Of a stretch of 64,000 nt of DNA, positions 9,720 to 47,713 are shown piece by piece. Position 1 is the stretch's first letter. Each line of letters begins with the position of its first letter. A model generated the notes under the pieces. The model did not search any database. It was not told where the DNA came from and was given only the letters and a program-made list of their open reading frames with translations. Position numbers and translations under genes: made by a program. This DNA is from Minwuiaceae bacterium (lineage in GTDB: Bacteria; Pseudomonadota; Alphaproteobacteria; Minwuiales; Minwuiaceae), in the NCBI GenBank assembly GCA_028278525.1, contig JANQEE010000017.1, forward strand, positions 66,274 to 130,273, written 5' to 3'.

Positions 9720-10480
9720 GCGCCCCGGTGGCGCTCGATGCGCATCGTATACGTCAGTTGATCGGCCGGATGCCAGTTGAACGAGGCGATCATGACACCG
9801 CCCGCCGTAACGTAGCGGCGCAGCAATTGCAACGCCCATGAGTCTGCCGGCAAGCCGAGCGTGCGACTGATCTCCGGCGGCATGGCCACGGCGCGGATTT
9901 CCTGGATCACTTCGTCGATCGGCCCATCGGCATGGCGTTCAAGCAGGCTGAAGAACGGCCCGTCGTGGTTCTCCAGTTGGCCGATCACATCGGCGAACCG
10001 CAGCGGAATGAAGCTTTGGATGTGACAAACGGCCCGTCCGCCCGGACGGGTCCAGCGCACGCCGGTCACGCGAAACCACTCTTCGCCCTCACGTCCGCCT
10101 ACCCGCCGGGCCAGTTCTCCGTCGAGCGTTACCCGGGTCGTTTCGTGGAAGACGAACCAGGTCTCCACCGCCACCTGGACCAGTTCGTGCAGCGACTCGA
10201 AGGATTGGACATATTCCGCCTTCGGATCGGTAGCCACGACGCGTGTGCCGAGGCCCTGCTTACGCTTGATATAGCCGCGATCGGTCAGGTGTCGCAGGGC
10301 TTCGCGAACCGTGAACCGGCTGGTCGCGAATTCCGCCGCCAGTTCAATCTCCGTCGGCATCAACGACCCGACCGGGTATTGACCGGCCGTCAACCGTTCT
10401 TCGAGAACGCGCTGGATGCGCTGATAGCGCGGGCCCTTCTCGGCCACCATGTCACCATGATTGGAGGGTGGTGTGGACAT
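9716..10480 (-). CDS. GntR-family transcriptional regulator (HutC/UTRA subfamily)
   Basis: An N-terminal winged HTH (YQRIQRVLEERLTAGQYPVGSLMPTEIELAAEFATSRFTVREALRHL) is followed by an effector-binding domain. The start was trimmed to MSTPPSN. Confidence 0.8.
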   Translation of the reverse strand: MSTPPSNHGDMVAEKGPRYQRIQRVLEERLTAGQYPVGSLMPTEIELAAEFATSRFTVREALRHLTDRGYIKRKQGLGTRVVATDPKAEYVQSFESLHELVQVAVETWFVFHETTRVTLDGELARRVGGREGEEWFRVTGVRWTRPGGRAVCHIQSFIPLRFADVIGQLENHDGPFFSLLERHADGPIDEVIQEIRAVAMPPEISRTLGLPADSWALQLLRRYVTAGGVMIASFNWHPADQLTYTMRIERHRGA

Positions 10481-14686: not shown

Positions 14687-15931
14687 CTAGAACCTTGGCA
14701 CATCGAACCGAACCGGCAGTGACAGAATAACGGCGTATTCGGGGCCGTCATCGGTCAAACCGACCACGCCGGCAAGATCGAGCAATACGCCACGGCCAAG
14801 CACCGACGATGCACCGATGGTAAAGGAACCAACAGTCCGATCCGAGCCGTCAACCTTGTCACCGTCGACTTCAGCCTCTTGCGAAAACTGCTGATCAAAG
14901 AAAAACCGCAAGGATGTGGATGGGCTGGCGGCCAGGACGGCACCAAGCGAGAAAGCAAGCTCGTCGCCCGGTTCGATATCGTCCTCTTCGAAGGTACTCT
15001 CGTACAAAAAGCTGGCAACGAATGCGAGAGGATCCTGTCTTTTGACCGCCGTCAACGACCCCCTGATCTCGTTGAAACCCGCGCCGAGCGCAACACCGTC
15101 GTCGAACCTTTCGCCGGTGTCGGAATCCCACGTAATTCTCCCGACAAGATCGGGCCACCACCGGTCTTCACGCAGTAAAGCCTTGGCCAGCCCGATGCGA
15201 AAATCGCCGAACCCCGAGCCGAATCCGCTTTCTTCGTCGCGTGCGCCGAAAACCACGCTTGTTACCGCCGATTGATCGACGAAATTGTACGGCAGGCCGA
15301 CCTCGAACTGGGCGTCCCAAGGCAAGCCGAGACGCAATTCCAGTTCGGCCTCGAATTCATTGCGGCGAACGTTCCGTTCCGCAAGAAACGTCGTAGCGCC
15401 CTCCGTGAAGAAAACCGGCGCATCGTTCTCTCTTCTCGTATAGCTGAAGCTGGGTTCTATTTGCGCTTTTCCGAACGGCAGCAAAAGAGCGCCCTCTTGC
15501 ACGAGCGTACGCTCCAACGCGCGGTCGATCGCGTCCTCGTCAATTTCGAACTCGCCGGGCGCCGGTTGTGGCGCTTGGTCGGTTACGGGCTCCGACGCCG
15601 CGGTCCGATAATTTGGAGATTGGATAATATCGGGGACGGCCGCACGCGAGGCGGGGGCGCCATTGAATGCCGCCGTTGCCAGGTCCGTTGCGTTGGGCGA
15701 GGCGCTTCCAGCCATCGCCCGCTCGAGCTGTTGCACGCGCTGTATGAGGTCCAAGATGACCGCGTCGCGGTCTTCGAGCAGCTCCTGCAGATGTTGGATG
15801 GTCGGCTCTTCGTCGGCTGCGTATGCAGCCGCCGGAACGAATACAGATGCCGACAACGCGCAAAGACAAGCCAGCATCCTGTTTACCGAGTAGACACTCG
15901 TCCGGGTCGGCAGTTTATTCATGTCCCCCAC
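14687..15931 (-). CDS. FapF-like outer-membrane beta-barrel secretion channel (signal peptide, periplasmic coiled coil, Ala/Pro linker, barrel with C-terminal Phe)
   Basis: The N-terminus (MNKLPTRTSVYSVNRMLACLCALSASVFVPAAAYAADE) is a signal peptide, followed by a heptad coiled coil (IQHLQELLEDRDAVILDLIQRVQQLERAMAG), then a low-complexity A/P/S linker. After that come alternating amphipathic beta-strands ending in ...VRFDVPRF. The probable true start is the ATG at 15922. Confidence 0.6.
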   Translation of the reverse strand: MGDMNKLPTRTSVYSVNRMLACLCALSASVFVPAAAYAADEEPTIQHLQELLEDRDAVILDLIQRVQQLERAMAGSASPNATDLATAAFNGAPASRAAVPDIIQSPNYRTAASEPVTDQAPQPAPGEFEIDEDAIDRALERTLVQEGALLLPFGKAQIEPSFSYTRRENDAPVFFTEGATTFLAERNVRRNEFEAELELRLGLPWDAQFEVGLPYNFVDQSAVTSVVFGARDEESGFGSGFGDFRIGLAKALLREDRWWPDLVGRITWDSDTGERFDDGVALGAGFNEIRGSLTAVKRQDPLAFVASFLYESTFEEDDIEPGDELAFSLGAVLAASPSTSLRFFFDQQFSQEAEVDGDKVDGSDRTVGSFTIGASSVLGRGVLLDLAGVVGLTDDGPEYAVILSLPVRFDVPRF

Positions 15932-15961: not shown

Positions 15962-16645
15962 TCAGCGAAGCATGACGAAGTCCTCGGGTCGGGGGGCGAG
16001 CCTGTTGGGAAGTACGGTACCGTCGCGTCGCGCGACCACGAACCCTACCCTTCCGACCTGCGGATACTTTATCCAGGAACTTTCGAACTTGCCCGCGAGC
16101 ATCGTGCGATTGCCGAACGCCGGGTCGGCCAAGAGGACCCGATTGCCGCGCATCCCCCGGAACACCACGAAATGGTTGTATCCGTCGAAATTGACGGGAA
16201 CCATTATCGGCGCACGCTGCTTCAGGTCGTCCAGAGTCAGGCTCCCGTAACCGATCCCTTCGTAGCCTCGGTCGTCGACATATTTCTTCAAGTCAAGCAG
16301 CGAGAAACCATGACGCAACCGAAGCAGACGGGGATTTGCGATGTATTCCTCGCGACTGATCAGCCCCGAGGCGACCTCTTTCTCGGATACAGGGTCGCCA
16401 TGCTGATAGTTGAGGATGGTAGCGAGAGCGGCCGCTCCGCAGCTTAGATCCCACTTCTGAACGACCACCCGGTCTTGGCGGATTTCGAGAAAGGAACGGA
16501 CGGGCTTCGACCCTTCGGCAAGTGCAGCAAAACACGGCGATATGCCGACCAGAATCGTAGCAATGAAAACACGTAACCGAACGTTGATGCGTCCGGTAGC
16601 TCGCCGGGCGTCGGCCCGGCGGCGGGTCTCATTTTGGCTCGACAT
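15962..16645 (-). CDS. Standalone peptidase C39-like cysteine peptidase (FapD-like), secreted
   Basis: The C39 catalytic block WDLSCGAAALATILNYQHG is present, with a signal peptide-like N-terminus (RVFIATILVGISPCFAALA). The start was trimmed to MSSQNE (ATG complement at 16643-16645). It ends 31 bp upstream of the outer-membrane protein gene. Confidence 0.7.
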   Translation of the reverse strand: MSSQNETRRRADARRATGRINVRLRVFIATILVGISPCFAALAEGSKPVRSFLEIRQDRVVVQKWDLSCGAAALATILNYQHGDPVSEKEVASGLISREEYIANPRLLRLRHGFSLLDLKKYVDDRGYEGIGYGSLTLDDLKQRAPIMVPVNFDGYNHFVVFRGMRGNRVLLADPAFGNRTMLAGKFESSWIKYPQVGRVGFVVARRDGTVLPNRLAPRPEDFVMLR

Positions 16646-16947: not shown

Positions 16948-17658
16948 ATGACTACCACGATTGCGCTGATCGACGAGAGAACACTCACCCGCCAATGCTT
17001 GGCCCGTTGGCTGGAACGCAGCAGCAAGGATTTCAAGATCATCGCAGTTGGAAGACTGGCCGAGCTTGACCAGCGATATGAGCAAAATGAGGACCCTCAT
17101 CTGGTGCTGCTCAGCGTCGGCCACCTGACGGTGACGGACGATGAGGTGCGATCGTCGCTCAAGCAAGTGACCGACCGATTGCCTGACGTGCCTATTATTG
17201 TCCTTTCCGATTCTGAAGACCCTACCGCAGTAGCAGAAGCGATACGCAACGGCGTCAAAGGCTACATTCCAACAACACTCGATTTATCCGTTGCCCTGGA
17301 AGCGCTGCGGCTGGTCCAGGTGGGCGGCACATATGTACCGGCCAGCACTTTCCTTACGGCGCTGGAAAGTCGGGCGCCGGCTTGTCAGCACCAGGAGCCG
17401 CGGCCTGGCGAGCCGCACTCGCTGAAAGGGTTCACACCACGCGAGTTGCAGGTCCTGGAGCTACTTCGAGAGGGCAAGCCGAACAAGATCATCGCCTACG
17501 ACCTGAACATGCAGGAAAGCACCGTGAAAGTTCACGTTCGACACATCATGAAAAAGCTTAAAGCGAGCAATCGTACCCAGGCGGCGTTTCTGGCGCAGCA
17601 GCTGGTGGAAGCGGAACGAGAATACGGGTTGGTGGAGGAGTCCATTCTTACGCACTGA
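16948..17658 (+). CDS. LuxR/FixJ-family response regulator (receiver-like domain plus LuxR HTH)
   Basis: The C-terminal LTPRELQVLELLREGKPNKIIAYDLNMQESTVKVHVRHIMKKL is an HTH_LuxR domain. The N-terminal region is a receiver-like fold. No cognate kinase is adjacent. Confidence 0.8.
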   Translation: MTTTIALIDERTLTRQCLARWLERSSKDFKIIAVGRLAELDQRYEQNEDPHLVLLSVGHLTVTDDEVRSSLKQVTDRLPDVPIIVLSDSEDPTAVAEAIRNGVKGYIPTTLDLSVALEALRLVQVGGTYVPASTFLTALESRAPACQHQEPRPGEPHSLKGFTPRELQVLELLREGKPNKIIAYDLNMQESTVKVHVRHIMKKLKASNRTQAAFLAQQLVEAEREYGLVEESILTH

Positions 17659-17957: not shown

Positions 17958-18374
17958 ATGAAGAAGCTACTGCTTTTGTCTGTCGTCCTCGGTCTCTCCA
18001 CGTCAACAGCGTGGTCCCAAGAGATTTCAATCAAACCGTCCGAACCGCTTCGCCTGACCCTCAGTCAGATGGAATCGGTTACGGCCGGAGGCTCGCTCGC
18101 ATTGACACTTATCTCTGCGTTGGCATCCGGAGATTCGACGTTGATCAATGGGGTGGCGAGTAGTTTCGCAACAGACGATGTCGCGAACTCGAGCGGGACG
18201 GTTTTTGTCGGCTCGAGTGTGGAACCGGATTCCGACATCGCGGGCAATCAATCAGCGGGCCAGGCGTCAGCGGACGCGTTTGGCGACAACACACTGACGA
18301 TAACGGACGCCTTTGCCCAAACGACGAGTTTGTCTTCTGCGTTGATGCTGTTGTCGCTGGCCGGCGTGGACTGA
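17958..18374 (+). CDS. Small secreted S/T/A/G-rich protein, member 1 of a three-member paralog family (N-motif EPLRLTLSQMESVTAGG; C-motif ASADAFGDNTLTITDAFAQTTSLSS)
   Basis: It has a Sec signal peptide (MKKLLLLSVVLGLSTSTAWSQE). It shares both terminal motifs with the ORFs at 21822 and 23925. Confidence 0.7.
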   Translation: MKKLLLLSVVLGLSTSTAWSQEISIKPSEPLRLTLSQMESVTAGGSLALTLISALASGDSTLINGVASSFATDDVANSSGTVFVGSSVEPDSDIAGNQSAGQASADAFGDNTLTITDAFAQTTSLSSALMLLSLAGVD

Positions 18375-18413
18375 GACGCGGAACATCACCACGGCGGGAC
18401 GAGGCCCGACAAG

Positions 18414-20699
18414 ATGGACGATCCGCCCGAAACGCCGTCAGCGCATACCAGAGACGCCGAAGGCGCAATGTCCCTGTATCGATCGGGTCGCCTGGCGGAC
18501 GCCGAGCAGGCGTACAGGCATCTACTCGACCAGGACGCGGACAACGCGGACAGTCTGCATATGTTGGGCGTAATAGCCTGGCGGCGCGGAGCGGCAGACG
18601 ACGCGAAGTCGCTGATCGAGCAGGCCTTGCGACAAGAGCCGCAAAATGCGCGCTATTACAATAGCCGCGGCATTGTCCTGGCGAACCAAGGGCAACTGGA
18701 GGATGCCCTAAGCTGCTTCGAACAGGCTATCGGTTTAGATTCCGATCTCGTCGAGGCGCACAACAACTACGGCAACGTTCTCAAGTCGCTCGGGCGACTG
18801 GAAGCGGCTTTGGTTGCCTACGATACAGCGATTGAGTCTCGCCCCGGCTATGCCGAGGCGCATTGCAACCGCGGCGGTGTTCTCGAAGCCCTAAGCCGGC
18901 CCGACGACGCGCTGGCGGCTTACGATGAAGCCGTTCGCATCGATCCCCGTTCCGCGAGCGCGCACAACGGTCGAGGCAACGTTCTGGTTGGTCGGGACAA
19001 TCTGAAAGCTGCCTTGGTTGCCTACGACACAACGATCGAGCTTCGTCCGGAAGGCGCGAAAGCCCACTACAATCGCGGCAATGTCCTGAAAGCACTGGGA
19101 CGCTTCGCCGAGGCATTGACCGCCTACGATCGTTCGCTCCGCATCGATGGCGAATTCATCGATGCACAAAACAACTACGGCACCGTTCTCGAATCTCTGG
19201 ATCGGCCCGACGAGGCGCTGGCCGCCTATGATCGGGCGATCCGCATCGATCCCAATTGCGCCAAGGCGCACAACAATCGAGGCAACATATTGAGGGATCA
19301 AGGACGGCTGAAGGACGCCCTGGCGGCATTCGAAACGTCGATTCAGTTGGATCCGGATTCGGCGATCGCCCACAACAATCTCGGCACCCTGCTGAAGGAC
19401 CAAGGCCGCCTCGACGCCGCCTTGGCCCACTTTGAGAAGGCCATCCGCATCGATCCGAATTCGTCGAAACCGCACAGCAACTATCTGATGTGCCTGACGT
19501 GCGATCCCGAACAGGATGACGACGCACTGTTTCAGGCCCACAAGAGATGGGGTGAACGGCATGGCCGTCCGCACGGCGCCTTCACTTGTTACGAGAATTC
19601 CAGGACCGTGAACAAGACGTTGCGCGTCGGTCTGGTCTCCGAGGAATTTGGGCGGACCCCGACCGGCTGGTTCCTGGAATCCGTCCTCTGCGAATTGAAC
19701 GATAAAACTGTCCAGGCCATTTGCTATTCGGACCGTCTGCTAGAGGACGCTTTGACCGACCGTCTGCGGTCCTGTGCTTTCGCTTGGCATTCGACCAGTA
19801 CGCTGACGGATGCAAAGCTCGCTGAATCAATCCGCGCCGATGGGATCGACATCCTGATCGATCTTTCCGGTCACGCCGGCGGCAATCGCCTGGGCTGTTT
19901 TGCCCTGAAACCCGCGCCTGTCCAGGTAAGCTGGATCGGTTACCATGAGACAACCGGACTTCCTGCCATGGATTACATACTGATGGATCCGGTGGTCGTT
20001 CCGATAGGCGCAGAGCGCTGGTTCACGGAGACGGTGGTTCGGTTGCCGCATAGCCGGTTCTGTTACACGCCGCCGGAATATTCGCCTGTCGTCGTTGACC
20101 CGCCGGCCATCGCCAATGGGCACATGACCTTCGGCAGCTTCAACAATCTGGCGAAAGTCAACCCGGAGGTCATTCGCGTTTGGGCGCGCATCCTGACGGA
20201 GGTTCCCGGTTCCAGGTTAATTCTGAAGTGGACGACACTGGACGATTCGGAAGAATGCAAACGGATGGAGAATGCATTCGCCGACTTTGGGATCGAGTCG
20301 GACAGGATCGACATGCGCGGACGGTCGCGCCACCACAGGCTGTTGGCCGAGTACGGCGACGTCGATATCGCTTTGGATCCGTTTCCCTATTGCGGCGGCC
20401 TGACAAGCTGCGAGGCGTTGTGGATGGGCGTTCCGATCGTCACGCTGCCGCACACGCGACCCGTATCGCGCATGACGACGGCCTTCCTGACAGCCATGCA
20501 GAAAACCGAATGGATCGCCGAAAGTACTGCCGACTACATTCGCATCGCGACCGAGCTCGCGAGCGATTTGGATGGCTTGACCGTCCAAAGGTGCGAACAA
20601 CGCGAGAGCATGAGAGTGTCCCCATTGTGCGACGGAGCGCGAGCGGCGCGCGATCTAGAGGCCGCCTTGCGCCTTATGTGGCGTAGATGGTGCGCGTAA
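18414..20699 (+). CDS. TPR-repeat protein with C-terminal O-GlcNAc transferase-like (GT41/SPINDLY-type) domain
   Basis: About ten 34-aa TPR units (AxxxYxxAIxxxP pattern) are followed by a roughly 350-aa glycosyltransferase 41-like C-terminus. The gene is 761 aa. Confidence 0.8.
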   Translation: MDDPPETPSAHTRDAEGAMSLYRSGRLADAEQAYRHLLDQDADNADSLHMLGVIAWRRGAADDAKSLIEQALRQEPQNARYYNSRGIVLANQGQLEDALSCFEQAIGLDSDLVEAHNNYGNVLKSLGRLEAALVAYDTAIESRPGYAEAHCNRGGVLEALSRPDDALAAYDEAVRIDPRSASAHNGRGNVLVGRDNLKAALVAYDTTIELRPEGAKAHYNRGNVLKALGRFAEALTAYDRSLRIDGEFIDAQNNYGTVLESLDRPDEALAAYDRAIRIDPNCAKAHNNRGNILRDQGRLKDALAAFETSIQLDPDSAIAHNNLGTLLKDQGRLDAALAHFEKAIRIDPNSSKPHSNYLMCLTCDPEQDDDALFQAHKRWGERHGRPHGAFTCYENSRTVNKTLRVGLVSEEFGRTPTGWFLESVLCELNDKTVQAICYSDRLLEDALTDRLRSCAFAWHSTSTLTDAKLAESIRADGIDILIDLSGHAGGNRLGCFALKPAPVQVSWIGYHETTGLPAMDYILMDPVVVPIGAERWFTETVVRLPHSRFCYTPPEYSPVVVDPPAIANGHMTFGSFNNLAKVNPEVIRVWARILTEVPGSRLILKWTTLDDSEECKRMENAFADFGIESDRIDMRGRSRHHRLLAEYGDVDIALDPFPYCGGLTSCEALWMGVPIVTLPHTRPVSRMTTAFLTAMQKTEWIAESTADYIRIATELASDLDGLTVQRCEQRESMRVSPLCDGARAARDLEAALRLMWRRWCA

Positions 20700-20783
20700 T
20701 TGTTTCGCAAAAAGCCACGGCGAAGTCGACGAATCCCGCCGACAAAAGAGAGCACAGCCTGGGCCGGGTTGGCGGACGTTCTC

Positions 20784-21125
20784 TCAGCCCGAACCGACGC
20801 GATTGTCGTCGTGCGCAGGTAGCCAAACGTCCGCCGCAGCTCTGTGTGCCTGCCGAGCCGACTTGGCATAGATCCGAGCCTGAAAGACGTTGTCGATATC
20901 GGCGCCGCCGAAACGGTCGATCAGCTTTTCAATGAACAACGGGAAGGTCGCGTGGAGAACATCCACATCCTGCATATCTTCATGGAGCTGATCCAGTAAC
21001 TCCGCCAGCGCGTTCAGCCGCGACGGCCAGGAGCGATGACGGAGCGGCTCGTAGACGCGTTCGACCAACTCGTCGGCCAAGCGCTCCGGCGTTACGGGCA
21101 ATGGGCTATGGGGTTTCACACGCAT
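20784..21125 (-). CDS. Hypothetical protein
   Basis: The 113-aa ORF has a balanced composition. The opposite-strand ORF is Arg-rich and likely spurious. Confidence 0.3.
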   Translation of the reverse strand: MRVKPHSPLPVTPERLADELVERVYEPLRHRSWPSRLNALAELLDQLHEDMQDVDVLHATFPLFIEKLIDRFGGADIDNVFQARIYAKSARQAHRAAADVWLPAHDDNRVGSG

Positions 21126-21152
21126 TTTGCAGACCTGATTTAAGGCGCACGA

Positions 21153-21449
21153 TCATCGAGACGTCGACGCATGGGCTTTGGCGCGCGCGCTTTGTCGCGA
21201 AACGGAAAGATATACGGACGCCTTGCCGCCGCGTGAACTCGCGGAAGCCCTTGCCGTCGCCCGGCCTTGCATGTCGGTCAATGTTTCAGACAGATAAAGG
21301 TCTCCGCCAATGACTGTTCGTTCGTGGACAATCGGGCGTCGGTCAGGGGCTGACCCCTCATCCGCAAATACCGGTTCCCCACCGGCCGTGGAGACGAAAC
21401 CGACCGCGGCACAAACCATGACGGCAACGCGGACAACCATTGCGCTCAT
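21153..21449 (-). CDS. Hypothetical small secreted protein
   Basis: A signal peptide (MSAMVVRVAVMVCAAVGFVSTAGGEP) is present. It shows weak resemblance to the EP...LTD.Q N-motif of the small-protein family. Confidence 0.3.
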   Translation of the reverse strand: MSAMVVRVAVMVCAAVGFVSTAGGEPVFADEGSAPDRRPIVHERTVIGGDLYLSETLTDMQGRATARASASSRGGKASVYLSVSRQSARAKAHASTSR

Positions 21450-21821
21450 GACCTTCGACGTTGAAATCCACCAATCCGATAACGTCGGCATAACCAACCA
21501 TGGCTGACGTCAAAGGATTAAAGTCTGGCGCCGGAACCTGGCCAAGCTGTCAATAGGTCGTAGCATTGCGGGCATGGGCCATCGTTGCTTCGGAAGACCG
21601 GGCAACGAAGCCCCCTTTTTGACGATTTGGCGTCGCCGTCTACAGCCATGGTTGTAGGCGCGGATCTGACCTCCCCAATTCGTCGCACCGATCACCGCCG
21701 AACGGCGGGCCAACCTTTTGGGTGGTTGTCCGGTGTCTCTACCAACACGCACACTCGATACACTGGCGCTGACGCCTCGCGCGGGCGCCGGTCGACAGAA
21801 CAATCGGAGGAGTGTTCGAAC

Positions 21822-22178
21822 ATGTCGAAGACAATGCTTTCCCTGCTTGCCGGTGTTTCGTTTGTGGCGTTGACGGGCGCCGCCGGCGCGGTGGAGCCGA
21901 TCAAGCTCACCGACAACCAGATGGACAAAGTCACGGCCGCCGGCTTTGTGGACTTCGATACCGACATCGATGTCAACGTCGACATCGACAAGGATGTCGA
22001 TATCAACGTGGATGCCGATGTGGACGCGGATGTCGATGTCGACGGCCATCTCGCCGTGGCAGAGGCCTCGGCCGACGCGTTTGGCAGCTTCGGCACCTTG
22101 TCGATTACCGATGCGTTTGCGCAGACGACGAGCAACTCTTCGGAGTCGTTCTCGTTCGCCTTGGCCGCGACGGACTAA
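21822..22178 (+). CDS. Small secreted acidic-repeat protein, member 2 of the paralog family (DVDIDKDVDINVDADVDADVDVD core)
   Basis: An RBS (ggagg) lies 11 nt upstream of the ATG. It has a Sec signal (MSKTMLSLLAGVSFVALTGAAGA), the N-motif EPIKLTDNQMDKVTAAG, and the C-motif ASADAFGSFGTLSITDAFAQTTSNSS. A terminator follows. Confidence 0.8.
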   Translation: MSKTMLSLLAGVSFVALTGAAGAVEPIKLTDNQMDKVTAAGFVDFDTDIDVNVDIDKDVDINVDADVDADVDVDGHLAVAEASADAFGSFGTLSITDAFAQTTSNSSESFSFALAATD

Positions 22179-22234
22179 GGCATCACCCGGCCTGATACGT
22201 GACCGAGGCCGGAAGTCCCTTAAACAAACTGAGC

Positions 22235-22265
22235 GCCCCGTGTCATCGCACGGGGCCATTTTTCT
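22235..22265 (+). terminator. Rho-independent terminator (gccccgtg-N6-cacggggc followed by a T-run)
   Basis: A GC-rich hairpin followed by TTTTTCT lies 57 nt after the stop of the 21822 gene. It is conserved in the paralog copy. Confidence 0.75.
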
Positions 22266-22347
22266 GCGACTCTTCGCTCGGACCCGTATTGCACGAAATC
22301 GGGCGGCAAGCTCTTCTGTCCTCCCAAACGTACGGGACGACCTCTGC

Positions 22348-23490
22348 CTAGCCGCTTTCCACCTGGCCATCACCGGCGTCGGGCACGCGCGAAGCCAGTG
22401 CACGGCGCCGGGCAGCGTTGGTCTTGTCGAAGAAGAAGCCGAAGATCCCGAAGCGTCTGCCCGATGTCACGGGCAGAGCCTCATGCAGCAGCTCAGCCGA
22501 GAAAACCACGGCGCCGCCGGCATCCGGCTTATAGAGCTGGCGCCCGAACTCCGGGAACCAGAGTTCGCCGCCTTCGTACTCGTGCGTGTTCAGATTAATC
22601 GTAAGCGCGAACTGCCGAAGTTTCGTGGCCGGCGTCGCTGTGGTATCGCGGTGGCGCAGAAACCTTCCTTGGACGGCGGAATCGTAACAACCGACGCGCA
22701 GCAACTGCCAGCTCTGCAGCTCGAAGTGAAACGCCTTCAGCAATTGCGGCGCGATGCGACGATTTATTCTCGCTCGCAGCTCGATGTTCAGGGCGCGGCT
22801 TGTTATGTGGACATCGGCCCGCCGCTTTTGGCCGTAGTCCGCACGGACGGCAGTTCCATGCGTTGTGGAGGTTACCTGATCGACCAACTTGTTGCCGGCT
22901 TGCCAATAGTCCATCAGCTTTCGGCAGAGATCCGGCTCAAGCACGTCATGAACGATCAGGGCCGGCGCCGCGGCCCGCACCTGCTGCGGCGCTGTCCGCT
23001 CAAAGATCCGGGTGCAATCTTCAAGCGCCGCCCCGAACGCGGCCCCCGGCCGGACGGAGACGATGCGCCCATCCGCATCCAGGACCACGACACCCGGACC
23101 GGTCAGGCCGACGGCACGCGCGACCCGCCGGTTTGGGTCGAGGAGCGTCCGCAATCCGATCGGCGATGGCACCGCCGCGGCCGACCCGTTGCGCGCGCGC
23201 ACGACCAGCCATGGATTGGCGCCGACCGCCTCGAAATCCGGCTGACGTTGGGCGAAAAGCCCTGCAACAACGGGATCCGGAGCGGCGTCCGCGATCCAGA
23301 GAACGAACGGCATGCCGATCCAGGATCCGTTCGCAATATGGACCTTGTTGCCTTGCGTGCTCTCGAGTTCGATAGCCTCCAGCGTATCGCCGCATGCAAC
23401 TTTGGCGGGCTTCGAAACCGGACCGATATCAAATCGATCGGCGGCCTTCGCCGGCTGTTTTTGCGTCGACTTATCGTCTGCCAAGGACAT
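22348..23490 (-). CDS. Thioredoxin-like (AhpC/TSA-type) N-domain fused to a 2OG-Fe(II) oxygenase (prolyl/aspartyl hydroxylase-like) C-domain
   Basis: The C-terminal part has HxD...H spacing (FLRHRDTT ... LLHEALPV) and RxS (SGRRFGIFGF) 2OG-binding features. The N-terminal 150 aa is redoxin-like. The gene is 380 aa. Confidence 0.65.
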   Translation of the reverse strand: MSLADDKSTQKQPAKAADRFDIGPVSKPAKVACGDTLEAIELESTQGNKVHIANGSWIGMPFVLWIADAAPDPVVAGLFAQRQPDFEAVGANPWLVVRARNGSAAAVPSPIGLRTLLDPNRRVARAVGLTGPGVVVLDADGRIVSVRPGAAFGAALEDCTRIFERTAPQQVRAAAPALIVHDVLEPDLCRKLMDYWQAGNKLVDQVTSTTHGTAVRADYGQKRRADVHITSRALNIELRARINRRIAPQLLKAFHFELQSWQLLRVGCYDSAVQGRFLRHRDTTATPATKLRQFALTINLNTHEYEGGELWFPEFGRQLYKPDAGGAVVFSAELLHEALPVTSGRRFGIFGFFFDKTNAARRRALASRVPDAGDGQVESG

Positions 23491-23924
23491 CCGGGCCTCG
23501 CGTCTTCTTCGCCTGTGCGATCGCCTCCGGCATCAGACTGCCCGGGGGTTTGTCGCCAAGACATGCGGGGGCACTAACCGTTAGTTTAAGTCCGGCCCCC
23601 CGCCCCCGGCCTACTTGACAATTTGAGGTACGTCTTTCGTTCGGCAGCATGGCCACCGGACGAACCCGACGAGTCACTTTGATATCTTCGTAGGACCGCC
23701 TATTGGCTGCACGCGGCCGAACCGGCGGCAGCAAATTGCGTCTACCACCGTGGCGGTAGACGCGGACCGGAACTCAGCATTTCGTCGCACCGGTCACCGT
23801 CGAACGGCGGGCCAACCTTTTGGGCGGTTGTCCGTCATCTGCACCCACACGCAAACTCAATCCACTGGTGCCGACGCTCGGCGCGGGCGCCGGTTGACAG
23901 ACCCAATTGGAGGAGTGCTCGAAC

Positions 23925-24278
23925 ATGTCGAAGACAATGATTTCCCTGCTGGCCGGCGTGTCGTTTGCCGCATTGACCGGAGCCGCCGGGGCGGCGGAGC
24001 CGGTCAAGCTGACCGACGGCCAGATGGACAGGATCACGGCCGCCGGCGGTGTGACGTTCGATACCGACATCAATGTCATGGTCGACATCGATAAGGACGT
24101 CGATATCGACGTGGACGCCGATGTGAACGCGGATGTCGACATCGAAGGCAATCTTGCGGTGGCCGAAGCCTCGGCCGATGCCTTTGGCAGCGATACCTTG
24201 TCGATTACCGACGCGTTCGCGCAGACGACGAGTTTCTCTTCGGAGTCGTTCTCGTTTGCTCTGGCCGCGACCGATTAA
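23925..24278 (+). CDS. Small secreted acidic-repeat protein, member 3 of the paralog family
   Basis: It is about 85% nucleotide-identical to the 21822 gene, including the RBS, the leader and the terminator. The N-motif is EPVKLTDGQMDRITAAG and the C-motif is ASADAFGSDTLSITDAFAQTTSFSS. Confidence 0.8.
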   Translation: MSKTMISLLAGVSFAALTGAAGAAEPVKLTDGQMDRITAAGGVTFDTDINVMVDIDKDVDIDVDADVNADVDIEGNLAVAEASADAFGSDTLSITDAFAQTTSFSSESFSFALAATD

Positions 24279-24333
24279 CGCATTACCCGGCCTCACACCT
24301 CGTCGAGGCCGGAAGCGCTTCAATTAAACTGAA

Positions 24334-24365
24334 AGCCCCATGTTTGCACATGGGGCTACTTTTTG
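24334..24365 (+). terminator. Rho-independent terminator (agccccatg-N5-catggggct followed by a T-run)
   Basis: This hairpin plus TTTTTG sits after the 23925 gene and is paralogous to the 22235 terminator. Confidence 0.75.
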
Positions 24366-25716: not shown

Positions 25717-26272
25717 GGTCCCACTCCCGTCTTGTTTTCGTTACACACCGCGTCACGCAGGTCATTCGCCGTAACGGCCATCTCCTGCCGCTCACCCTCG
25801 CCTCTGGGTTGCGCATGCGCGCGGCCGGCCACGCGCCTGAACGGCCTCGAACAATTCAAGCCGCATGACAATCGCCCGGCTAGAAGCCAATCCGATGTAG
25901 GCGAGCGCTCGAAAGAGGTAGAGCAGCCCGGGTAAGCACCGGGCCGGACAATGCCGAACCGGCGCGCGTCGGCACGCCGCGCCCGCCGTTGTTCTTCGTT
26001 CGGTCGTTTTGCCGGTAAGAGAACCGAGAACGCCCGCGTGTCGGATGTACGAACGCGGCCCGGCCTCGATCACCGATCAATTTACCTACCTCCAAATCGG
26101 TAGGAAGGAGCAAATTGATGAACGTTTGGACAGCGCTTAATGCCAAAGGCGAATTGTCACCCCGCGAGAACGCAAGCAAAATTCCAAGAAGTCTTTTTGT
26201 CTTGGTGGTTTATGACGTTGCTTGTACGTACGGCATTCGTGCGGCCGAGCGCATATCGGGGAGGGTGGACCT

Positions 26273-27565
26273 ATGTTTATTCGGGGCACGCGAGGCGACG
26301 ACATTCTGATCGGCACGGCTGCGGATGACTTCATCTTGGGTAACGGTGGCAACGACATTATCGATGCCACCCTGGGCGGCAACAACACGATCATTACCCG
26401 CAGCGGCGACGACCAAATTTTGGCTGGATTGGGCAACGACGTCATCAACGACCGTGGCGGCGACAACACCATCATGGATCTCGGCGGCAACAACTTCATA
26501 CGAACCCGCGATGGCGACGATGATATCACCACCGGCGACGGCGATGACGAAATCTATGCGGGCGACGGGACCAACATCATCGACGCCGGCGACGGCAACA
26601 ATACCGTCATCGGCGGCGATGGTTTCGACGATATCAGGGTCGGTTTCGGGAGCGATTTCGTCAAACTTGGAAGTGGCAACGAGCCCATCGACGTAAGCGG
26701 CACCGGCGCGACGGTCGATTTCTCGATTGGCGGCGCCATCTCGATCAACGGCGAGCCGCTGTTCGACTTTAGCGGCATCGGTGCCGATGATCCCAATCAG
26801 CTTATCGATCTGGCCAACTTCGGCCTGGCATCACTTGGTTTTGGCGTCGTGAGCGCGAGTAATCTGAGCATCGACTTCGGCGGGAGCGACACCATCCTCG
26901 GTTCGGGCCGCGACGACGTCATTTTGAACGACTTCTTTTTTCTCGGCGGCTCCGGCCCGGCAGCCAGCGACGACGAGATCCATGCCGGCGAAGGCGAAAA
27001 CATCGTCATCGATGTCGGCGGCAACAACCTGATCACCTCCGGCGAGGGCGACGACATCATTTTTACGTCGCTGGTGGCGGCGGTCGCCGGTGACGACGAA
27101 GTCATCAGCGGCGGCGGTGACGACAACGTTCAGACCGGCGCCGGCAGCGACAATGTCCAGACCGAAGAGGGCAACGACATATTGGTGGGCGGCACGGGTC
27201 CGGACATACTGGCAGGCGGAACAGAGCAAGATCGCATCTTTCCCGGGACAATGAACGCCTTCGATGGGCAGACCGACATCATCGATTACAACTCGCTGGC
27301 CGAAACCACGCCGGACCCAAGTCAGGTCGATCTGGTATTCGGTTTCGAGCCGGGCGCCGGCGGCGACCAGATCGACTTCAGTGATTTAACCGGGCCGGCG
27401 TTCGACATCGGTTCCGACCTCAAATTCCTGGTCGGCAATGTCGGCGTTACGCCGAGCACTTTCGTGCTGCTCGACCCCGATGGCGGCGCCGACGGCTTCG
27501 TCTTCACAGCGGCTTTGGTCGGCACAAATCCGGCGTTGCTCACCCCGGACAATTTTATCGTCTGA
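26273..27565 (+). CDS. RTX-type calcium-binding repeat protein (putative T1SS substrate)
   Basis: It contains many GGxGxDxU nonapeptide repeats (GGNDIIDATLGGNNTIITRSGDDQILAGLGNDVIND...). It lies directly upstream of the T1SS ABC/MFP genes. An RBS (gggagggtgga) precedes ATG 26273. Confidence 0.8.
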   Translation: MFIRGTRGDDILIGTAADDFILGNGGNDIIDATLGGNNTIITRSGDDQILAGLGNDVINDRGGDNTIMDLGGNNFIRTRDGDDDITTGDGDDEIYAGDGTNIIDAGDGNNTVIGGDGFDDIRVGFGSDFVKLGSGNEPIDVSGTGATVDFSIGGAISINGEPLFDFSGIGADDPNQLIDLANFGLASLGFGVVSASNLSIDFGGSDTILGSGRDDVILNDFFFLGGSGPAASDDEIHAGEGENIVIDVGGNNLITSGEGDDIIFTSLVAAVAGDDEVISGGGDDNVQTGAGSDNVQTEEGNDILVGGTGPDILAGGTEQDRIFPGTMNAFDGQTDIIDYNSLAETTPDPSQVDLVFGFEPGAGGDQIDFSDLTGPAFDIGSDLKFLVGNVGVTPSTFVLLDPDGGADGFVFTAALVGTNPALLTPDNFIV

Positions 27566-27673: not shown

Positions 27674-29416
27674 TTGACGTCAATGATGCTCGATCGAAAC
27701 GAAAACGGTGACCCGGCCGCAACGGCGGTACGAGCATCTCGCGGCGCCTTTGTCGCGGTTGCCCTGTTCAGTCTGTTTCACAATCTGCTGCTGCTGACCG
27801 TCCCCCTCTACATGCTGCAGATCTACGACCGGGTGCTCACGTCCGGCAGTCAGGCAACGTTGGCGATGCTGACCGTCGTCGCGCTTGGCATGTTGTTGGC
27901 GAGCGCCTTGCTCGAGCTCGTGCGTAATCGAATCCTGACACGTCTGGCAATGCGCCTCGACGATCGCCTGAACGCCGACGTGCTCACGGCGACCCATCGA
28001 CTTCGGCTCGACAAAGTTCAGCAAAACGGACAACCGCTGATCCGCGATCTCGAGATCGTGCGCGCCTTTCTTGCGGGCAACGGCCTCATCGCCCTTCTGG
28101 ATATGCCGTGGACGCCCGTGTTCATCGTGGTGATTTTCCTGTTTCACCCCCTTCTCGGGTCGGTCGCGCTCGGCGGCGTCATTCTGTTGTTCGGGCTTGG
28201 CGTTCTGAATGAGCTGGTGACAAGGAAGCCGCTTAGGGAAGCGCTTCGCGAACACGCGACGGGTCAGTCCTTCGCGGAGACGAGCCTGCAGAACGGCGAT
28301 GTCGTCGAAGCCATGGCAATGCTGCCCGGCCTACACCGGCGCTGGCGCGAGCATCATGAGCGGTCCCTTCTTTTGCAGACGAAATTGAGCGATCGCGCGG
28401 GAACGATTGCCGCCTTCGCCAAGTTTGCCCGCCAAGGCTTGCAGATAGCGATGCTTGGGCTTGGCGCCTATCTCGCGCTGCAGCAGGTAATTACGGCGGG
28501 CGTCATGATCGCCGCATCGATCATCCTCGCCCGTGCGTTGGCGCCAGTCGAATTGTCGATCATGGGTTGGCGGGGTTTCGTGCAGGCACGGGAGTCTTTC
28601 GCGCGGCTGCGGCGGGCCGTCACCTCGGCCGGGCCGGACACCGATCCAATGCGCCTTCCAGACCCGACGGGTCGCATCGCTATCGAGAATCTGTTCGCTG
28701 CGCCTCCGGGGGTCGCGAAACCGGTCCTCCGAAATGTCACCTGCGACCTCGAGCCCGGCCAGATACTCGGTGTGATCGGTCCGAGCGCCGCCGGCAAATC
28801 CACATTGGCACGAGTGCTGGTCGGTGTATGGCAGCCGAAGTCTGGCCATGTGCGCCTGGACGGTGCCGATTTCGCGACCTGGGATCGCCGCCAGCTTGGG
28901 CCGTGTATCGGCTATCTGCCTCAGGACGTCGAGCTGTTCGATGGCTCGATCAAAGAAAACATCGCGCGATTTGAGCTGCCGGTCACGGAGCGGGTCGTCG
29001 CCGCGGCACGGCGTGCGGGCGTCCATGACATGATCCTCGGCCTACCCGACGGCTACAATACGAGGATTGGCGATGGCGGAAGCGTGCTCTCAGGCGGACA
29101 GCGACAGCGTATCGCGCTGGCCCGGGCGCTTTACGGCGACCCGGTGCTGATCGTGCTCGACGAACCGAATGCCAGCCTAGACACCGACGGCGACCACTCC
29201 CTTCGAGTTGCACTGGAAACCCTGAAGGCCGAGCAAAAAACGGTTGTGATCATCTCCCATCGTCTCAATGTGCTGGCGGTGGCCGATCAGCTAATGCTGC
29301 TGCGCGACGGCGCGGTGGAACGATCCGGCCCCCGCGCCGAAGTTCTAACGGCCCTGACGCGGGTGGCGGCCAGCCAGTCGGTCAGCACCAGCCGCGACGC
29401 GGCTGTGGCGACATGA
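27674..29416 (+). CDS. Type I secretion system ABC transporter permease/ATPase (PrtD/HasD-type, no N-terminal C39 domain)
   Basis: A 6-TM domain is followed by an ABC ATPase with Walker A (GPSAAGKST), the signature LSGGQRQRIALARAL, and Walker B (IVLDEP). Confidence 0.9.
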   Translation: MTSMMLDRNENGDPAATAVRASRGAFVAVALFSLFHNLLLLTVPLYMLQIYDRVLTSGSQATLAMLTVVALGMLLASALLELVRNRILTRLAMRLDDRLNADVLTATHRLRLDKVQQNGQPLIRDLEIVRAFLAGNGLIALLDMPWTPVFIVVIFLFHPLLGSVALGGVILLFGLGVLNELVTRKPLREALREHATGQSFAETSLQNGDVVEAMAMLPGLHRRWREHHERSLLLQTKLSDRAGTIAAFAKFARQGLQIAMLGLGAYLALQQVITAGVMIAASIILARALAPVELSIMGWRGFVQARESFARLRRAVTSAGPDTDPMRLPDPTGRIAIENLFAAPPGVAKPVLRNVTCDLEPGQILGVIGPSAAGKSTLARVLVGVWQPKSGHVRLDGADFATWDRRQLGPCIGYLPQDVELFDGSIKENIARFELPVTERVVAAARRAGVHDMILGLPDGYNTRIGDGGSVLSGGQRQRIALARALYGDPVLIVLDEPNASLDTDGDHSLRVALETLKAEQKTVVIISHRLNVLAVADQLMLLRDGAVERSGPRAEVLTALTRVAASQSVSTSRDAAVAT

Positions 29417-30765
29417 CGCTCGTCAACGATATTCGATCGATCGTCCCGTCCGCGCGATCGGAGCACACGCGTTTCAAGGCGGTATTGCAGATGCGGCCGG
29501 CGATCCTAAGCGGCCTGTTCGTGTTGCTCATCACGTTCGGCGGGTTTGGGACGTGGGCGGCGCTCATTCCGATCGACGGCGGCGTGATCGCTCCCGGCTT
29601 CGTCACCGTCGCCACCAACCGCAAGGCCGTACAGCACCTGGATGGCGGTATCGTTGCGGCGGTGATCGTCCGGGACGGCGACGAGGTGCGCGCCGGCGAC
29701 ATTCTCGTTCGCCTCGACAACACCCGTGCCCGCGCCTCGGTGGCCATCTTGCAGGACAGATTGCACTCAGCATTGGCTATCAAGGCACGCCTGACCGCGG
29801 AGCAGACGGGGGCCGCCGAAATCCTGTTTCCACAAATCCTCCTTGATCGAGCGTCGGAACAGGACATCGCGGACATTATGAACGGGCAGCAGGTGTTGTT
29901 TCAGGCACGGCGGGACAGCCTGGTCGGCGAGACGACGATACTGAAGCAGCGCGTCGACCAGTTGACCGGAAAAATCGATGCGATCGAAGCGCAGAAGACG
30001 TCGAAGACCCGGCAACGCGCGCTGATCCATGAGGAGCTTGAAGGCCTTCGAGAGCTTTTTAAGAAAGGCTACACCGAGCGCTCTCGGATCCTGGCATTGT
30101 CACGCACGGCCGCGCGGCTGGAAGGCGAATATGGCGAGCATTCCGCCGACATCGTCCGGGTCGAGGAGGCGATCGGCGAAACGCGATTGCAGATGCTGCA
30201 GGCACAGAAGGCATTTCGCGAAGACGTCGTCGCCGAGCTTCGCGACATTCAGATGCAAATTTTCGATCTCGATGAAAGGGTGGGCGCTGCGCGGGACCTG
30301 GAGGACAAACTGGAGTTACGCGCGCCGGTCGCCGGCACCGTCGTCGCTACCGCAGTGCATGGCATCGGCCAGGTGATCAAGCCGGGAGAGACGATCCTCG
30401 AAATTGTACCCGCCGGGGATCCGCTTGTTATCGAAGCCCATGTCCGCCCTGTCGACATCGACAGCGTTTCCGTGGGGCAAGAGGTCACCGTGCGGCTAAC
30501 CGCCTTCAAGCAACGGACGACACCCACCCTGAGCGGCCGTGTCATCTATGTGTCCGCCGACAGCCTCGTCGGTCGGCAATCAGGCCATGCATACTACTTG
30601 GCGCGTATCGAGGTGCCGAAAGACGAGGCCCGACGTCTGGGCAACCGAAACCTGTTGCCCGGCATGCCCGCTGAAACATTGATACGAACGGGAGGCCGAA
30701 CTGCCATGCAGTATCTGCTGCAACCAATCGCCGATGGCATGGCCCGGGCCTGGCGGGAAGAGTAG
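29413..30765 (+). CDS. HlyD-family T1SS periplasmic adaptor (membrane fusion protein)
   Basis: It has a single N-terminal TM segment, long coiled coils, and a C-terminal beta-domain. It overlaps the ABC gene by 4 bp. Confidence 0.9.
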   Translation: MTLVNDIRSIVPSARSEHTRFKAVLQMRPAILSGLFVLLITFGGFGTWAALIPIDGGVIAPGFVTVATNRKAVQHLDGGIVAAVIVRDGDEVRAGDILVRLDNTRARASVAILQDRLHSALAIKARLTAEQTGAAEILFPQILLDRASEQDIADIMNGQQVLFQARRDSLVGETTILKQRVDQLTGKIDAIEAQKTSKTRQRALIHEELEGLRELFKKGYTERSRILALSRTAARLEGEYGEHSADIVRVEEAIGETRLQMLQAQKAFREDVVAELRDIQMQIFDLDERVGAARDLEDKLELRAPVAGTVVATAVHGIGQVIKPGETILEIVPAGDPLVIEAHVRPVDIDSVSVGQEVTVRLTAFKQRTTPTLSGRVIYVSADSLVGRQSGHAYYLARIEVPKDEARRLGNRNLLPGMPAETLIRTGGRTAMQYLLQPIADGMARAWREE

Positions 30766-41759: not shown

Positions 41760-42812
41760 ATGGCGGTCAGTGTGAGCACAGTCGATTCAACATCGAAACC
41801 GCCGGGTGACGTGGAACTGCCCACTACACCGGACGATGCCGAACGGCGGGTGCCGCCGCCGGCGCTGGTCGGCGGGACGCCGGCGGCACCCGCCGGCTTC
41901 GCCGCGGTCAAGGCCGACAATCGCGAAGGCGGCTTTCCGACATTGTGGCTGATCGCGCCGGCGACGCTGTGGCTGCTGGTCTTCCTTGTGCTGCCGCTGC
42001 TCGGCATCATTGTGTTCAGTTTTTGGGACACCGAAGGCGGCAAGCTGATCGCCGACCCGACGTTGGAACACTATCGCGACTATTTCTACACGGAAGGCTT
42101 CTTCGACTCCGAGTCGCGCAACTTCCTGACCCTCAGCGTATTTATCCGCACCCTCGGCTCGACATTTTACTTCACCGCCCTGGTAATGGTGCTGTGTCTG
42201 ATCGTCGGCTATCCGATCGCGTACTTCCTGGCCATGCAGGTGGGAAGCTTCAAGTGGCAGATGGCACTGTTCCTGCTGTGCATGGTGCCATTCTGGACCA
42301 GCTATCTGATCCGTGCCGTTGCCTGGCTGCCCATGCTGGGCCGGCGCGGGCTGCTTAACGAGCTGTTGTTGCTGACTGGCGTCGTCGACAAGCCGGTCAG
42401 CTTTCTGCTCTATTCCGAGTTCGGCTATGTGATGGCGCTGGTGCAGATCTACGTTGTGCTTGGCGTCGGCCCGATATTCTTCTCGCTTGCAAAAATCGAC
42501 AAGGCGATCATCGAAGCCGCCCGCGACATGGGCGCGACGCCCTTCCAGATCTTCCGTGAGATCATCGGTCCCCTGTCGCTGCCGGGCGTGGCGATCGGAA
42601 TGATCTTCATCTTCGTTATGCTTATGGGTGAGTTCGCGACCGCGGTCGTGGTTTACGGCGGCAAGGCATCGACCACCGGCACCGTGATCCTGAACTACTA
42701 CGCGATTGCCAATTATCCGTTCGCGGCGGTAAACGCCCTTATGCTCATGCTGGCGATGATGATCGGCGTCGTCATCATTCTGCGCGTCGTCGATATCCGG
42801 AAGGAGCTCTGA
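41760..42812 (+). CDS. ABC transporter permease (PotB-like)
   Basis: It has 6 TM segments and an EAA-like loop (AARDMGATPFQIFREI). The true start is probably downstream of the first in-frame codon. Confidence 0.75.
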   Translation: MAVSVSTVDSTSKPPGDVELPTTPDDAERRVPPPALVGGTPAAPAGFAAVKADNREGGFPTLWLIAPATLWLLVFLVLPLLGIIVFSFWDTEGGKLIADPTLEHYRDYFYTEGFFDSESRNFLTLSVFIRTLGSTFYFTALVMVLCLIVGYPIAYFLAMQVGSFKWQMALFLLCMVPFWTSYLIRAVAWLPMLGRRGLLNELLLLTGVVDKPVSFLLYSEFGYVMALVQIYVVLGVGPIFFSLAKIDKAIIEAARDMGATPFQIFREIIGPLSLPGVAIGMIFIFVMLMGEFATAVVVYGGKASTTGTVILNYYAIANYPFAAVNALMLMLAMMIGVVIILRVVDIRKEL

Positions 42813-42814
42813 AC

Positions 42815-43642: not shown

Positions 43643-43647
43643 CCTCG

Positions 43648-44772: not shown

Positions 44773-44832
44773 CGCGGATCACGACCGGTCCAATCCAATG
44801 CCACCCGACCGTCCGGGCACGAACAGCCGAAT

Positions 44833-47658: not shown

Positions 47659-47713
47659 CTGCGCTTACCTTGTTCTTTCTGCTTATGTTCTTTTTTTGAC
47701 GGCATTGCGGACA

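Follow-up and report, generated by a model that had tools for sequence, protein, structure and literature searches.

We analysed a stretch of 64,000 nucleotides, referred to below as the window, from a Minwuiaceae bacterium of the Alphaproteobacteria (contig JANQEE010000017.1, positions 66,274 to 130,273). Our focus was on three small genes, copies A, B and C, that lie close to the genes of a C39 peptidase and an outer-membrane protein (OMP) (Table 1). A first-pass annotation of the sequence had described their products as secreted proteins with two conserved ends. Signal peptides could indeed be read from the sequences of all three; each begins with a basic n-region, which is followed by a hydrophobic h-region and a cleavage site of the AxA type. 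Alignment of the three proteins agreed with the common N-motif, EP[LIV][RK]LT..QM[ED]..[VI]TA[AG]G, and the common C-motif, ASADAFG..TL[ST]ITDAFAQTTS.SS, that had been reported. The middle part was also as described, i.e., an alternating D/V tract in B and C and an S/T/G-rich stretch in A, where we additionally found an insertion.

Pairwise identity in the alignment was 85% between B and C and 41% between A and either of the other two. The ratio of nonsynonymous to synonymous substitution rates (dN/dS) for B versus C was 0.20 overall, 0.06 in the C-terminal third and 0.63 in the core. Good Shine-Dalgarno sequences precede all three genes, and that of copy A (GGGAGG) lies 6 nt upstream of the ATG. 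Chance open reading frames (ORFs) were ruled out because of the dN/dS values, the homologues, the ribosome-binding sites and the terminators. A, B and C are genuine paralogous genes.

Table 1. Features of the locus. Positions are those of the window; arrows mark predicted cleavage sites.
Feature	Position	Strand	Description
Copy A	17958..18374	+	138 aa; signal peptide aa 1-20 (..TAWS↓QE); leader aa 21-44 = QEISIKPSEPLRLTLSQMESVTAG; predicted mature start G45 (nt 18090); divergent S/T/G-rich core and conserved C-terminal ASADAFG..TITDAFAQTTS module
Copy B	21822..22178	+	118 aa; signal peptide aa 1-23 (..AGA↓VEP); leader aa 24-40 = VEPIKLTDNQMDKVTAA; predicted mature start G41 (nt 21942); D/V alternating amphipathic beta core and C-terminal three-strand module
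Copy C	23925..24278	+	117 aa; signal peptide site ..AGA↓AEP; predicted mature start G41 (nt 24045)
C39 double-glycine cysteine peptidase, stand-alone	15962..16645	-	227 aa from the Met that matches homologues
OMP	14687..15931	-	Signal peptide, putative coiled coil ..LQELLEDRDAVILDLIQRVQQLERAM.., linker, beta-barrel; C-terminal Phe
LuxR/GerE-type response regulator	16948..17658	+	Divergent from the C39-OMP operon
Tetratricopeptide-repeat (TPR) and GT41 glycosyltransferase	18414..20699	+	40 bp after copy A
Dioxygenase-like gene	22348-23490	-	380 aa, between B and C
RTX (calcium-binding nonapeptide repeat) protein	26222..27565	+	Ends ..DNFIV; conserved neighbour of the family
Type I secretion system (T1SS) ATP-binding cassette (ABC) transporter and AprE/HlyD-type adaptor	27674..30765	+	Transporter of 580 aa, without C39 domain
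Duplication unit 1	21637..22263	+	Upstream conserved region, gene B and terminator 22235-22256
Duplication unit 2	23739..24363	+	Upstream conserved region, gene C and terminator 24334-24357

The protein family and its peptidase and channel neighbours

No Pfam or NCBIfam model matched A, B or C above threshold. NCBIfam searches with 33 family members gave no match at E <= 0.05, and a Pfam scan of 50 diverse members assigned no family, in line with the first-pass annotation, which had not recognised one. Identity with the Fap subunits FapB, FapC or FapE was ruled out by the lack of NCBIfam and Pfam matches, and identity with curlin by the lack of a match to Pfam PF07012 and of CsgG/E/F-like genes at the locus. 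A word-indexed search returned 40 relatives, and an exhaustive family profile search over 1.84 billion protein representatives returned 403 cluster representatives at E <= 1e-3. The alphaproteobacterial genomic matches were marine (Pelagibius litoralis, Pelagibius sp., Rhodovibrionaceae, Limibaculum and a Rhodospirillales metagenome-assembled genome from coral black-band disease). The cyanobacterial ones belonged to filamentous or mat-forming genera (Leptothoe, Leptolyngbya, Pleurocapsa and Calothrix).

The C39 peptidase has an N-terminal signal or anchor segment that is visible in its sequence. It aligned to the LahT double-glycine protease (LahT150) with the catalytic Cys (..DLSCGAA..), His (..YNHFVV..) and Asp conserved, and it matched Pfam Peptidase_C39 with an E value of 1.3e-13. 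The best NCBIfam match was FilB (1e-28, 100.7 bits against a cutoff of 475). The FapD model matched with 6e-25 and 87.8 bits against a cutoff of 330, and the protein is not a FapD equivalog. Its homologues number more than 3800, far above the number of family members, with identities of 61-78% for the top 120.

A profile of 11 OMP orthologues matched only FapF chains in the PDB (E 6.3e-15; profile positions 191-414, chain residues 69-332), and the single OMP sequence matched FapF with an E value of 1.5e-3. The score against the NCBIfam FapF model was 33 bits with a cutoff of 700, indicating a homologue and not an equivalog. The orthologues also match Pfam Phenol_MetA_deg, the COG4313 class that has been likened to FapF (PMC6173800). 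The heptad-like segment ahead of the barrel (LQELLEDRDAVILDLIQRVQQLERAM) is kept in the orthologues, and its matches to coiled-coil trimers in the PDB were non-significant (E 0.04-1). A stand-alone periplasmic C39 peptidase with catalytic Cys and His thus lies beside a FapF-homologous barrel, which is the arrangement of Fap-type systems.

We compared the gene content of all fetched loci by local jackhmmer. The C39 peptidase, the OMP, the GerE-type regulator and the RTX protein were present at 10 of 10 informative family-carrying proteobacterial loci, and the pair of T1SS ABC transporter and adaptor was present at 8 of these 10. The first-pass annotation had proposed A, B and C as candidate substrates of the Fap-like peptidase and channel, and had suggested judging this by whether homologues lie beside such a pair. 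The peptidase and the OMP, together with the regulator, accompanied the family at all ten loci, which favours the proposal. This comparative evidence makes it very probable that the adjacent C39 peptidase and FapF-like channel have A, B and C as their substrates.

The N-motif and the export signals of the homologues

The N-motif is part of a leader with the consensus EPxxL(S/T)xxx(M/L)Dx(V/I)TA(A/G)↓G, which always stands right behind a Sec signal peptide. A regular expression for this leader gave 37 matches in 437 kb read in six frames, with a signal peptide directly ahead of each. Its register, L-S-x-x-x-L-D-x-V-T-A-[AG], matches that of the classical double-glycine leader LSxxELxxIxGG, with A-A or A-G at positions -2/-1 and an invariant Gly at +1, and can be regarded as a variant of the double-glycine consensus. 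AlphaFold2 placed a short helix across the leader. The cleavage site would most probably lie on the N-terminal side of the invariant Gly (TA[AG]↓G), and independent support for this site comes from leaderless homologues, which would begin with the same Gly after removal of Met.

Three further loci (L022-L024) were picked via C39 homologues alone and not via the exported proteins (the cargo). At all three, a gene for the same OMP lies directly downstream of the C39 gene, and one to three leader-bearing ORFs lie within ~2 kb upstream. These ORFs encode a Sec signal and the same leader (e.g., AQA↓EPLSLSTDQMDVITAAG), whereas the mature sequence differs. Larger Ala/Ser/Thr-rich proteins at L001, L002, L012 and L007 also bear the leader, and the mature parts of the other leader-bearing cargo matched no Pfam family. 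The leader apparently follows the machinery and not the cargo family, i.e., the N-motif is generic and common to unrelated cargo. Of the two conserved ends, both of which had been suggested as processing or recognition sites, the N-terminal one would be a processing and targeting signal, whereas the C-motif belongs to the mature domain.

The other cargo observed at these loci includes Ala/Ser/Thr-rich proteins of 150-370 aa with Sec signal and leader, encoded next to C39/OMP pairs (L001 7112-8101, L012 6612-7616, L007 3134-4081, L022 7759-8367 and 8695-9237, L023 8758-9225 and L024 8540-9664(-)). BLAST of the divergent core of copy A against all other cargo classes revealed no relation, and we gave up the idea of a chimera between copy A and another cargo class.

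The family members themselves differ in their export signals. Among 112 representatives of the small members classed in this way, 67 have a Sec signal and the EP..TA(A/G) leader, 38 have only a cytoplasmic double-glycine (GG) leader (MIISDLNYLEvv..GG) without a Sec signal, and 7 have only Met and Gly. The sequenced examples of the leader-only class are cyanobacterial, and the cyanobacterial leaders end in ..GG or ..GAGG. A leader at the extreme N-terminus without a Sec signal, suited to export by a peptidase-containing ABC transporter (PCAT), was found only in these leader-only homologues and not in A, B or C. The Calothrix member adjoins a 1025-aa C39-ABC exporter and an HlyD-type adaptor. 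The surroundings in Calothrix sp. NIES-4101 (L005 3413-14159) resemble those of ribosomally synthesised and post-translationally modified peptides (RiPPs) and comprise a cyclic-nucleotide-binding C39-ABC exporter, an HlyD-type adaptor, a rotamase, several more small ORFs, a Nif11-type peptide and a radical-SAM/SPASM enzyme.

In addition, more than 40 representatives are longer, leaderless homologues (280-480 aa) that begin with MG.V.F.T, the position right after the leader. At the inspected loci, an upstream in-frame stop lies 3-31 codons away, which leaves no room for a signal peptide. The tails of these proteins have an acidic residue followed by hydrophobic residues (..DLVLA, ..DFLIA, ..DFDFI, ..DFTIA) and resemble the C-terminal T1SS signal of the AprA/PrtG type. 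Three export signals therefore seem to occur on one cargo family, namely Sec plus leader, a plain GG leader and a T1SS-like tail.

A GG-type leader and a C39 peptidase are also expected of class II microcin-, bacteriocin- or glycocin-like peptides, from which C39 would remove the leader, which might be glycosylated by the GT41 enzyme, and which would kill competitors. The tandem, multi-copy precursor genes, the mature size of less than 10 kDa, the glycosyltransferase adjoining copy A and the PCAT exporter of a cyanobacterial homologue near Nif11 and radical-SAM/SPASM genes agree with such a role. However, the predicted mature B and C proteins are strongly acidic (18-19 D+E versus 1 K+R), contain no Cys and have no membrane-active segment. 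An immunity-like gene was recognised in none of the inspected loci, and the same module is found at the N-terminus of 280-480 aa proteins with VWA, SdrD_B or SpaA adhesin-type domains or large inserts. Furthermore, proteobacterial export would use Sec and an outer-membrane barrel instead of a PCAT, and glycocins are known to use GT2 enzymes, not GT41. An antimicrobial function is thus quite unlikely.

The mature module and the proposed mechanism

Over their first 36 mature residues, B and C showed a strict two-residue hydrophobic periodicity (z = 6.5-7 versus shuffles), and no such periodicity was found in the S/T/G-rich core of copy A. Family-wide, the core keeps the pattern x-V-x-[IVL], followed by LATAEASADALG / LAETDTFAQV / AFAFSESLAA; the earlier description of the core as hypervariable does not hold at this level.

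AlphaFold2 modelled full-length B (33 sequences) with a predicted local distance difference test (pLDDT) score of 65 overall and of 82-91 in a C-terminal three-stranded β-meander (LAVAEASADAF / TLSITDAFAQT / SESFSFALAAT). A deeper alignment brought no gain, as mature C (115 sequences) reached a pLDDT of 50, and only the three-strand meander and the leader helix are usable in these models. A search of the PDB with Foldseek reached no significant match (best E 0.067), and thus no fold was assigned. The C-motif is part of a mature domain of ~77 residues, of which it is the most structured and most constrained region.

The long variants carry either a large domain between ASADAxG and LAETDTFAQ or a C-terminal extension. 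In many of them, the loop that connects strands 1 and 2 is precisely where a domain of ~250 residues is inserted; others have a VWA_2, SdrD_B or SpaA-like domain behind the module. These insertions and fusions indicate an extracellular module that is self-contained and serves as a scaffold or assembly unit for adhesin-type domains. Together with the three export signals, the adhesin-type fusions make the family a candidate for a new structural component of surface fibres or of the biofilm matrix in marine Alphaproteobacteria and in Cyanobacteria.

Asp is extremely frequent in the cores of B and C, RTX calcium-binding proteins accompany the family in both Proteobacteria and Cyanobacteria, and the source organisms are marine or mat-dwelling. 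These features would suit acidic, calcium-binding secreted or surface proteins that do not polymerise and that serve as a cation-buffering or mineral-interacting coat, or as partners or anchors of RTX proteins. We consider this alternative unlikely. The acidity of the core is not conserved, and homologues swap Asp for Lys, Asn or Thr while keeping the alternating hydrophobic pattern, suggesting that β-structure and not metal ligation has been selected. The tandem paralogues and adhesin-fused variants also suit an assembly module better.

Our overall reading, to which we assign a probability of roughly 0.6, is that A, B and C are acidic subunits of a matrix or fibre that self-assemble and take a route of Sec export, C39 cleavage and FapF-like export. 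They would be pre-pro-proteins of a two-step export. The Sec signal peptide would bring them to the periplasm, where the C39 peptidase would recognise and remove the double-glycine-type leader of 17-24 residues. The processed, largely unfolded acidic protein of ~77-94 residues would then exit via the FapF-homologous barrel. Outside the cell, the mature module with its long amphipathic β core and C-terminal β-meander would self-associate into a fibre, a matrix or a surface layer, which at other loci would be joined by subunits with adhesin-type domains. The LuxR-type regulator would control the locus, and the adjacent TPR-GT41 protein may glycosylate the cargo before export.

The comparative support for the Sec, C39 and FapF-like route is strong but indirect. 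It covers the genes, the leader, the association of this leader with the C39/OMP pair, the homology to FapF and the alternative export signals of the homologues; the cleavage site, the passage through the OMP and polymerisation are what we infer. Fibre formation is suggested by the homology to the Fap exporter, the tandem paralogues, the β-periodic core and the adhesin fusions. A fibre or adhesin role is also supported by the amphipathic β pattern of the 36-residue core (z 4.4-7) and by the AlphaFold2 monomer, which has no confident fold save for the C-terminal meander.

Several observations weigh against this reading. The C39 peptidase and the OMP score far under the FapD and FapF equivalog cutoffs, and the locus encodes a sister system to which Fap biology may not carry over. 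It could also be the accompanying T1SS that actually exports something we ascribe to the OMP. One long leaderless variant is present in each other proteobacterial locus (L001 1487-2380(-), L003, L009-L014, L007 11748-12953) but not in the 64-kb window, where we found no family member, long or leaderless, and no leader-bearing ORF besides A, B and C. As positions -2/-1 of the leader are A-A or A-G instead of G-G, the cleavage site is a prediction, and the cut could also fall one residue further on, after G. Finally, AlphaFold2 confidence was low in the core, and no similarity of the mature domain to FapB, FapC, FapE, curlin or any solved fold was detected.

A broader reading is tentative, and we would put it at somewhat below even odds as a whole. 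It holds that Sec export followed by a periplasmic C39 peptidase that reads a pro-leader and by a FapF-type channel is a general two-step route, as yet unnamed, which many unrelated cargo families use in thousands of mostly marine bacteria. Three routes (Sec/C39/FapF-like, PCAT, and T1SS with a C-terminal signal) would be interchangeable in delivering the ~77-residue assembly module, and all of them would produce the same free N-terminal Gly, which would be needed for assembly. The TPR-GT41 protein, at times apparently fused to C39 by a transmembrane (TM) segment, would glycosylate the cargo before export. The leader would also hint at what FapD-type peptidases recognise.

Known export systems and the flanking DNA

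In the Fap system, which has been described as a hybrid secretion system, the periplasmic C39 peptidase FapD and the trimeric barrel FapF export amyloid subunits (Rouse et al. 2017, PMC5557850). The target of FapD is unidentified, and the Fap proteins have no canonical C39 motif (PMC5557850, PMC6173800). Pairs of fapD/fapF-like genes have been reported in five other phyla, with cargo unnamed (Rouse et al. 2018, PMC6173800). The locus in the window resembles Fap in its stand-alone periplasmic C39 gene beside a FapF-homologous barrel and in small Sec-exported cargo present in several paralogous copies. The heptad-like segment ahead of the barrel may form an N-terminal coiled coil as well. However, the cargo is unrelated to FapB, FapC and FapE, its C39 and OMP fall far short of the FapD and FapF equivalog cutoffs, and there is no FapA. 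The cargo bears a recognisable double-glycine-type leader, unlike the Fap proteins, and the locus adds a T1SS, an RTX protein and a GT41 enzyme.

The leader shares the hydrophobic register L..xxL..V/I.xx and the small -2/-1 residues with the double-glycine leaders of PCAT and ABC-transporter maturation and secretion (AMS) systems (class II bacteriocins, microcins; LahT, ComA). The C39 fold and catalytic residues are also shared, and the cyanobacterial members use a plain GG leader, the Calothrix one lying next to a PCAT. In contrast to those systems, the leader in the window stands behind a Sec signal peptide and has A-A or A-G at -2/-1, followed by the invariant Gly. The peptidase is a separate periplasmic protein, and passage through the outer membrane would occur via a FapF-like barrel and not via a conduit of ABC transporter, membrane fusion protein and TolC.

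The small GG-motif proteins EbfG1-4 of Synechococcus elongatus, with the transporter PteB, are amyloid-prone and belong to the biofilm matrix and cell surface (PMC4997328, PMC9981879). They resemble the family in being tandem small GG-leader proteins with a C39-containing transporter and a matrix rather than an antibiotic role, and EbfG1-4/PteB are the best functional counterpart of the cyanobacterial members. However, EbfG proteins have no Sec signal, periplasmic step or FapF-like OMP, and the authors report no homologues of mature EbfG in other cyanobacteria (PMC4997328, PMC9981879). Microcins of Acinetobacter baumannii are reported to self-assemble in biofilms (PMC13188072) and, like EbfG1-4/PteB, serve as a precedent for the proposed self-association.

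The Acinetobacter Fil system (FilA, FilB; NCBIfam NF050078) is similar in that FilB, itself a C39 peptidase, is the top NCBIfam match of the C39 peptidase in the window, below the cutoff. It is different in that the OMP matches FapF and not any Fil component. Copy C matched DUF6160 (PF19657), which we take to be FilA, weakly and in the signal peptide and leader region only (E 0.006; 17.3 bits against a cutoff of 27). It was one of 50 members to do so, and the Pfam gathering threshold was not reached. FilA is listed as the Fil pilus subunit among the known surface fibre proteins, and whole-cell proteomics detected it in Acinetobacter sp. Tol 5 (PMC11784438).

In the open-access literature, we found no description of this family, nor of a route that combines Sec, a GG leader, C39 and a FapF-like channel. 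The locus seems to represent a new cargo family and a leader-bearing variant of Fap-type hybrid secretion that is Fap-like in its working but is not Fap. The conserved leader provides a candidate recognition signal and cleavage site, open to direct test, for periplasmic C39 peptidases of this class. It could also mark a widespread, unannotated export pathway in genomes, with peptidase homologues in the thousands and several cargo families.

The gap of 40 bp between copy A and the TPR-GT41 gene makes it likely that the two form one operon. In the window and at four cyanobacterial loci, the family has TPR-GT41 genes as neighbours. In three C39 cluster representatives (P0206, P0227 and P0243, one annotated as Geminicoccaceae), the C-terminus of GT41 runs in frame, without a stop, into a signal or anchor segment and C39. 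This may be a true GT41-TM-C39 fusion or very tight adjacency, and either would point to a functional link between GT41 and the C39 system. A fusion of cytoplasmic GT41, TM segment and periplasmic C39 would be topologically consistent. The flanking genes and the read-through suggest glycosylation of the cargo ahead of its export. HMW1C/HMW1 is a known case in which a protein is glycosylated in the cytoplasm prior to Sec export. Glycosylation of the cargo by GT41 may thus be a candidate step, and the proposed mechanism does not require it. The four cyanobacterial loci (L004/L018 5398-9408, L019, L020 and L015), like the window, have large TPR and GT41 (plus GT2) proteins and nucleotide-sugar genes beside the family, an association across phyla that likewise suggests cargo glycosylation. 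The cluster in the window contains a UDP-xylose-synthase-like gene.

The C-terminal half of the dioxygenase-like protein weakly resembles PKHD/YbiX-type Fe(II)/2-oxoglutarate (2OG) dioxygenases (NCBIfam 8e-10, below cutoff), and the protein has no Pfam match. Its position between B and C, the GT41 gene after A and the in-frame continuation of GT41 into C39 elsewhere would be compatible with a RiPP pathway, in which the 2OG-Fe dioxygenase-like protein, GT41 or both modify the variable core and the conserved ends serve as recognition sequences. We regard this as very unlikely. No counterpart of the dioxygenase-like gene was found in any related locus examined, and L001-L003, L007 and L009-L013 have no detectable homologues of the GT41, dioxygenase-like and UDP-xylose-synthase genes, apart from one weak GT41/TPR match (L012). 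Furthermore, the C-terminal part that would serve for recognition is the most structured and most constrained mature region, and glycosylation, if it occurs, fits the export of assembling subunits and is thus no alternative to it. The earlier suggestion of modified-peptide precursors finds weak and locus-specific support in the nearby GT41 and dioxygenase-like genes.

B and C are the product of a recent duplication. The duplicated unit spans ~625 bp and, besides the gene, takes in an intrinsic terminator and ~180 bp of conserved DNA upstream. A scan of 14-31 kb with Rfam gave no match, and the conserved DNA upstream of B and C thus fits no known RNA family; a scan for sigma-70 promoters found none. 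A conserved 23-mer with a palindrome, CCGCCGAACGGCGG, is confined to the DNA ahead of B and C (21693-21715 and 23795-23817; 0 occurrences expected by chance) and may be a regulator binding site or a 5'-untranslated-region hairpin. Two small ORFs, possible genes without a family match, lie between the GT41 gene and B (20784-21125(-), 113 aa, and 21153-21497(-), 114 aa), and the N-terminus of the latter product resembles a signal peptide.

The RTX protein is a probable substrate of the adjacent T1SS. Local jackhmmer seeded with this protein detected a second RTX-like ORF towards the end of the window (62787-63998(-)). The AT skew is strongly negative (-0.19 to -0.26) at 8001-10000 and 42001-48000, as against values around 0 within the cluster and over most of the window's first 35 kb.

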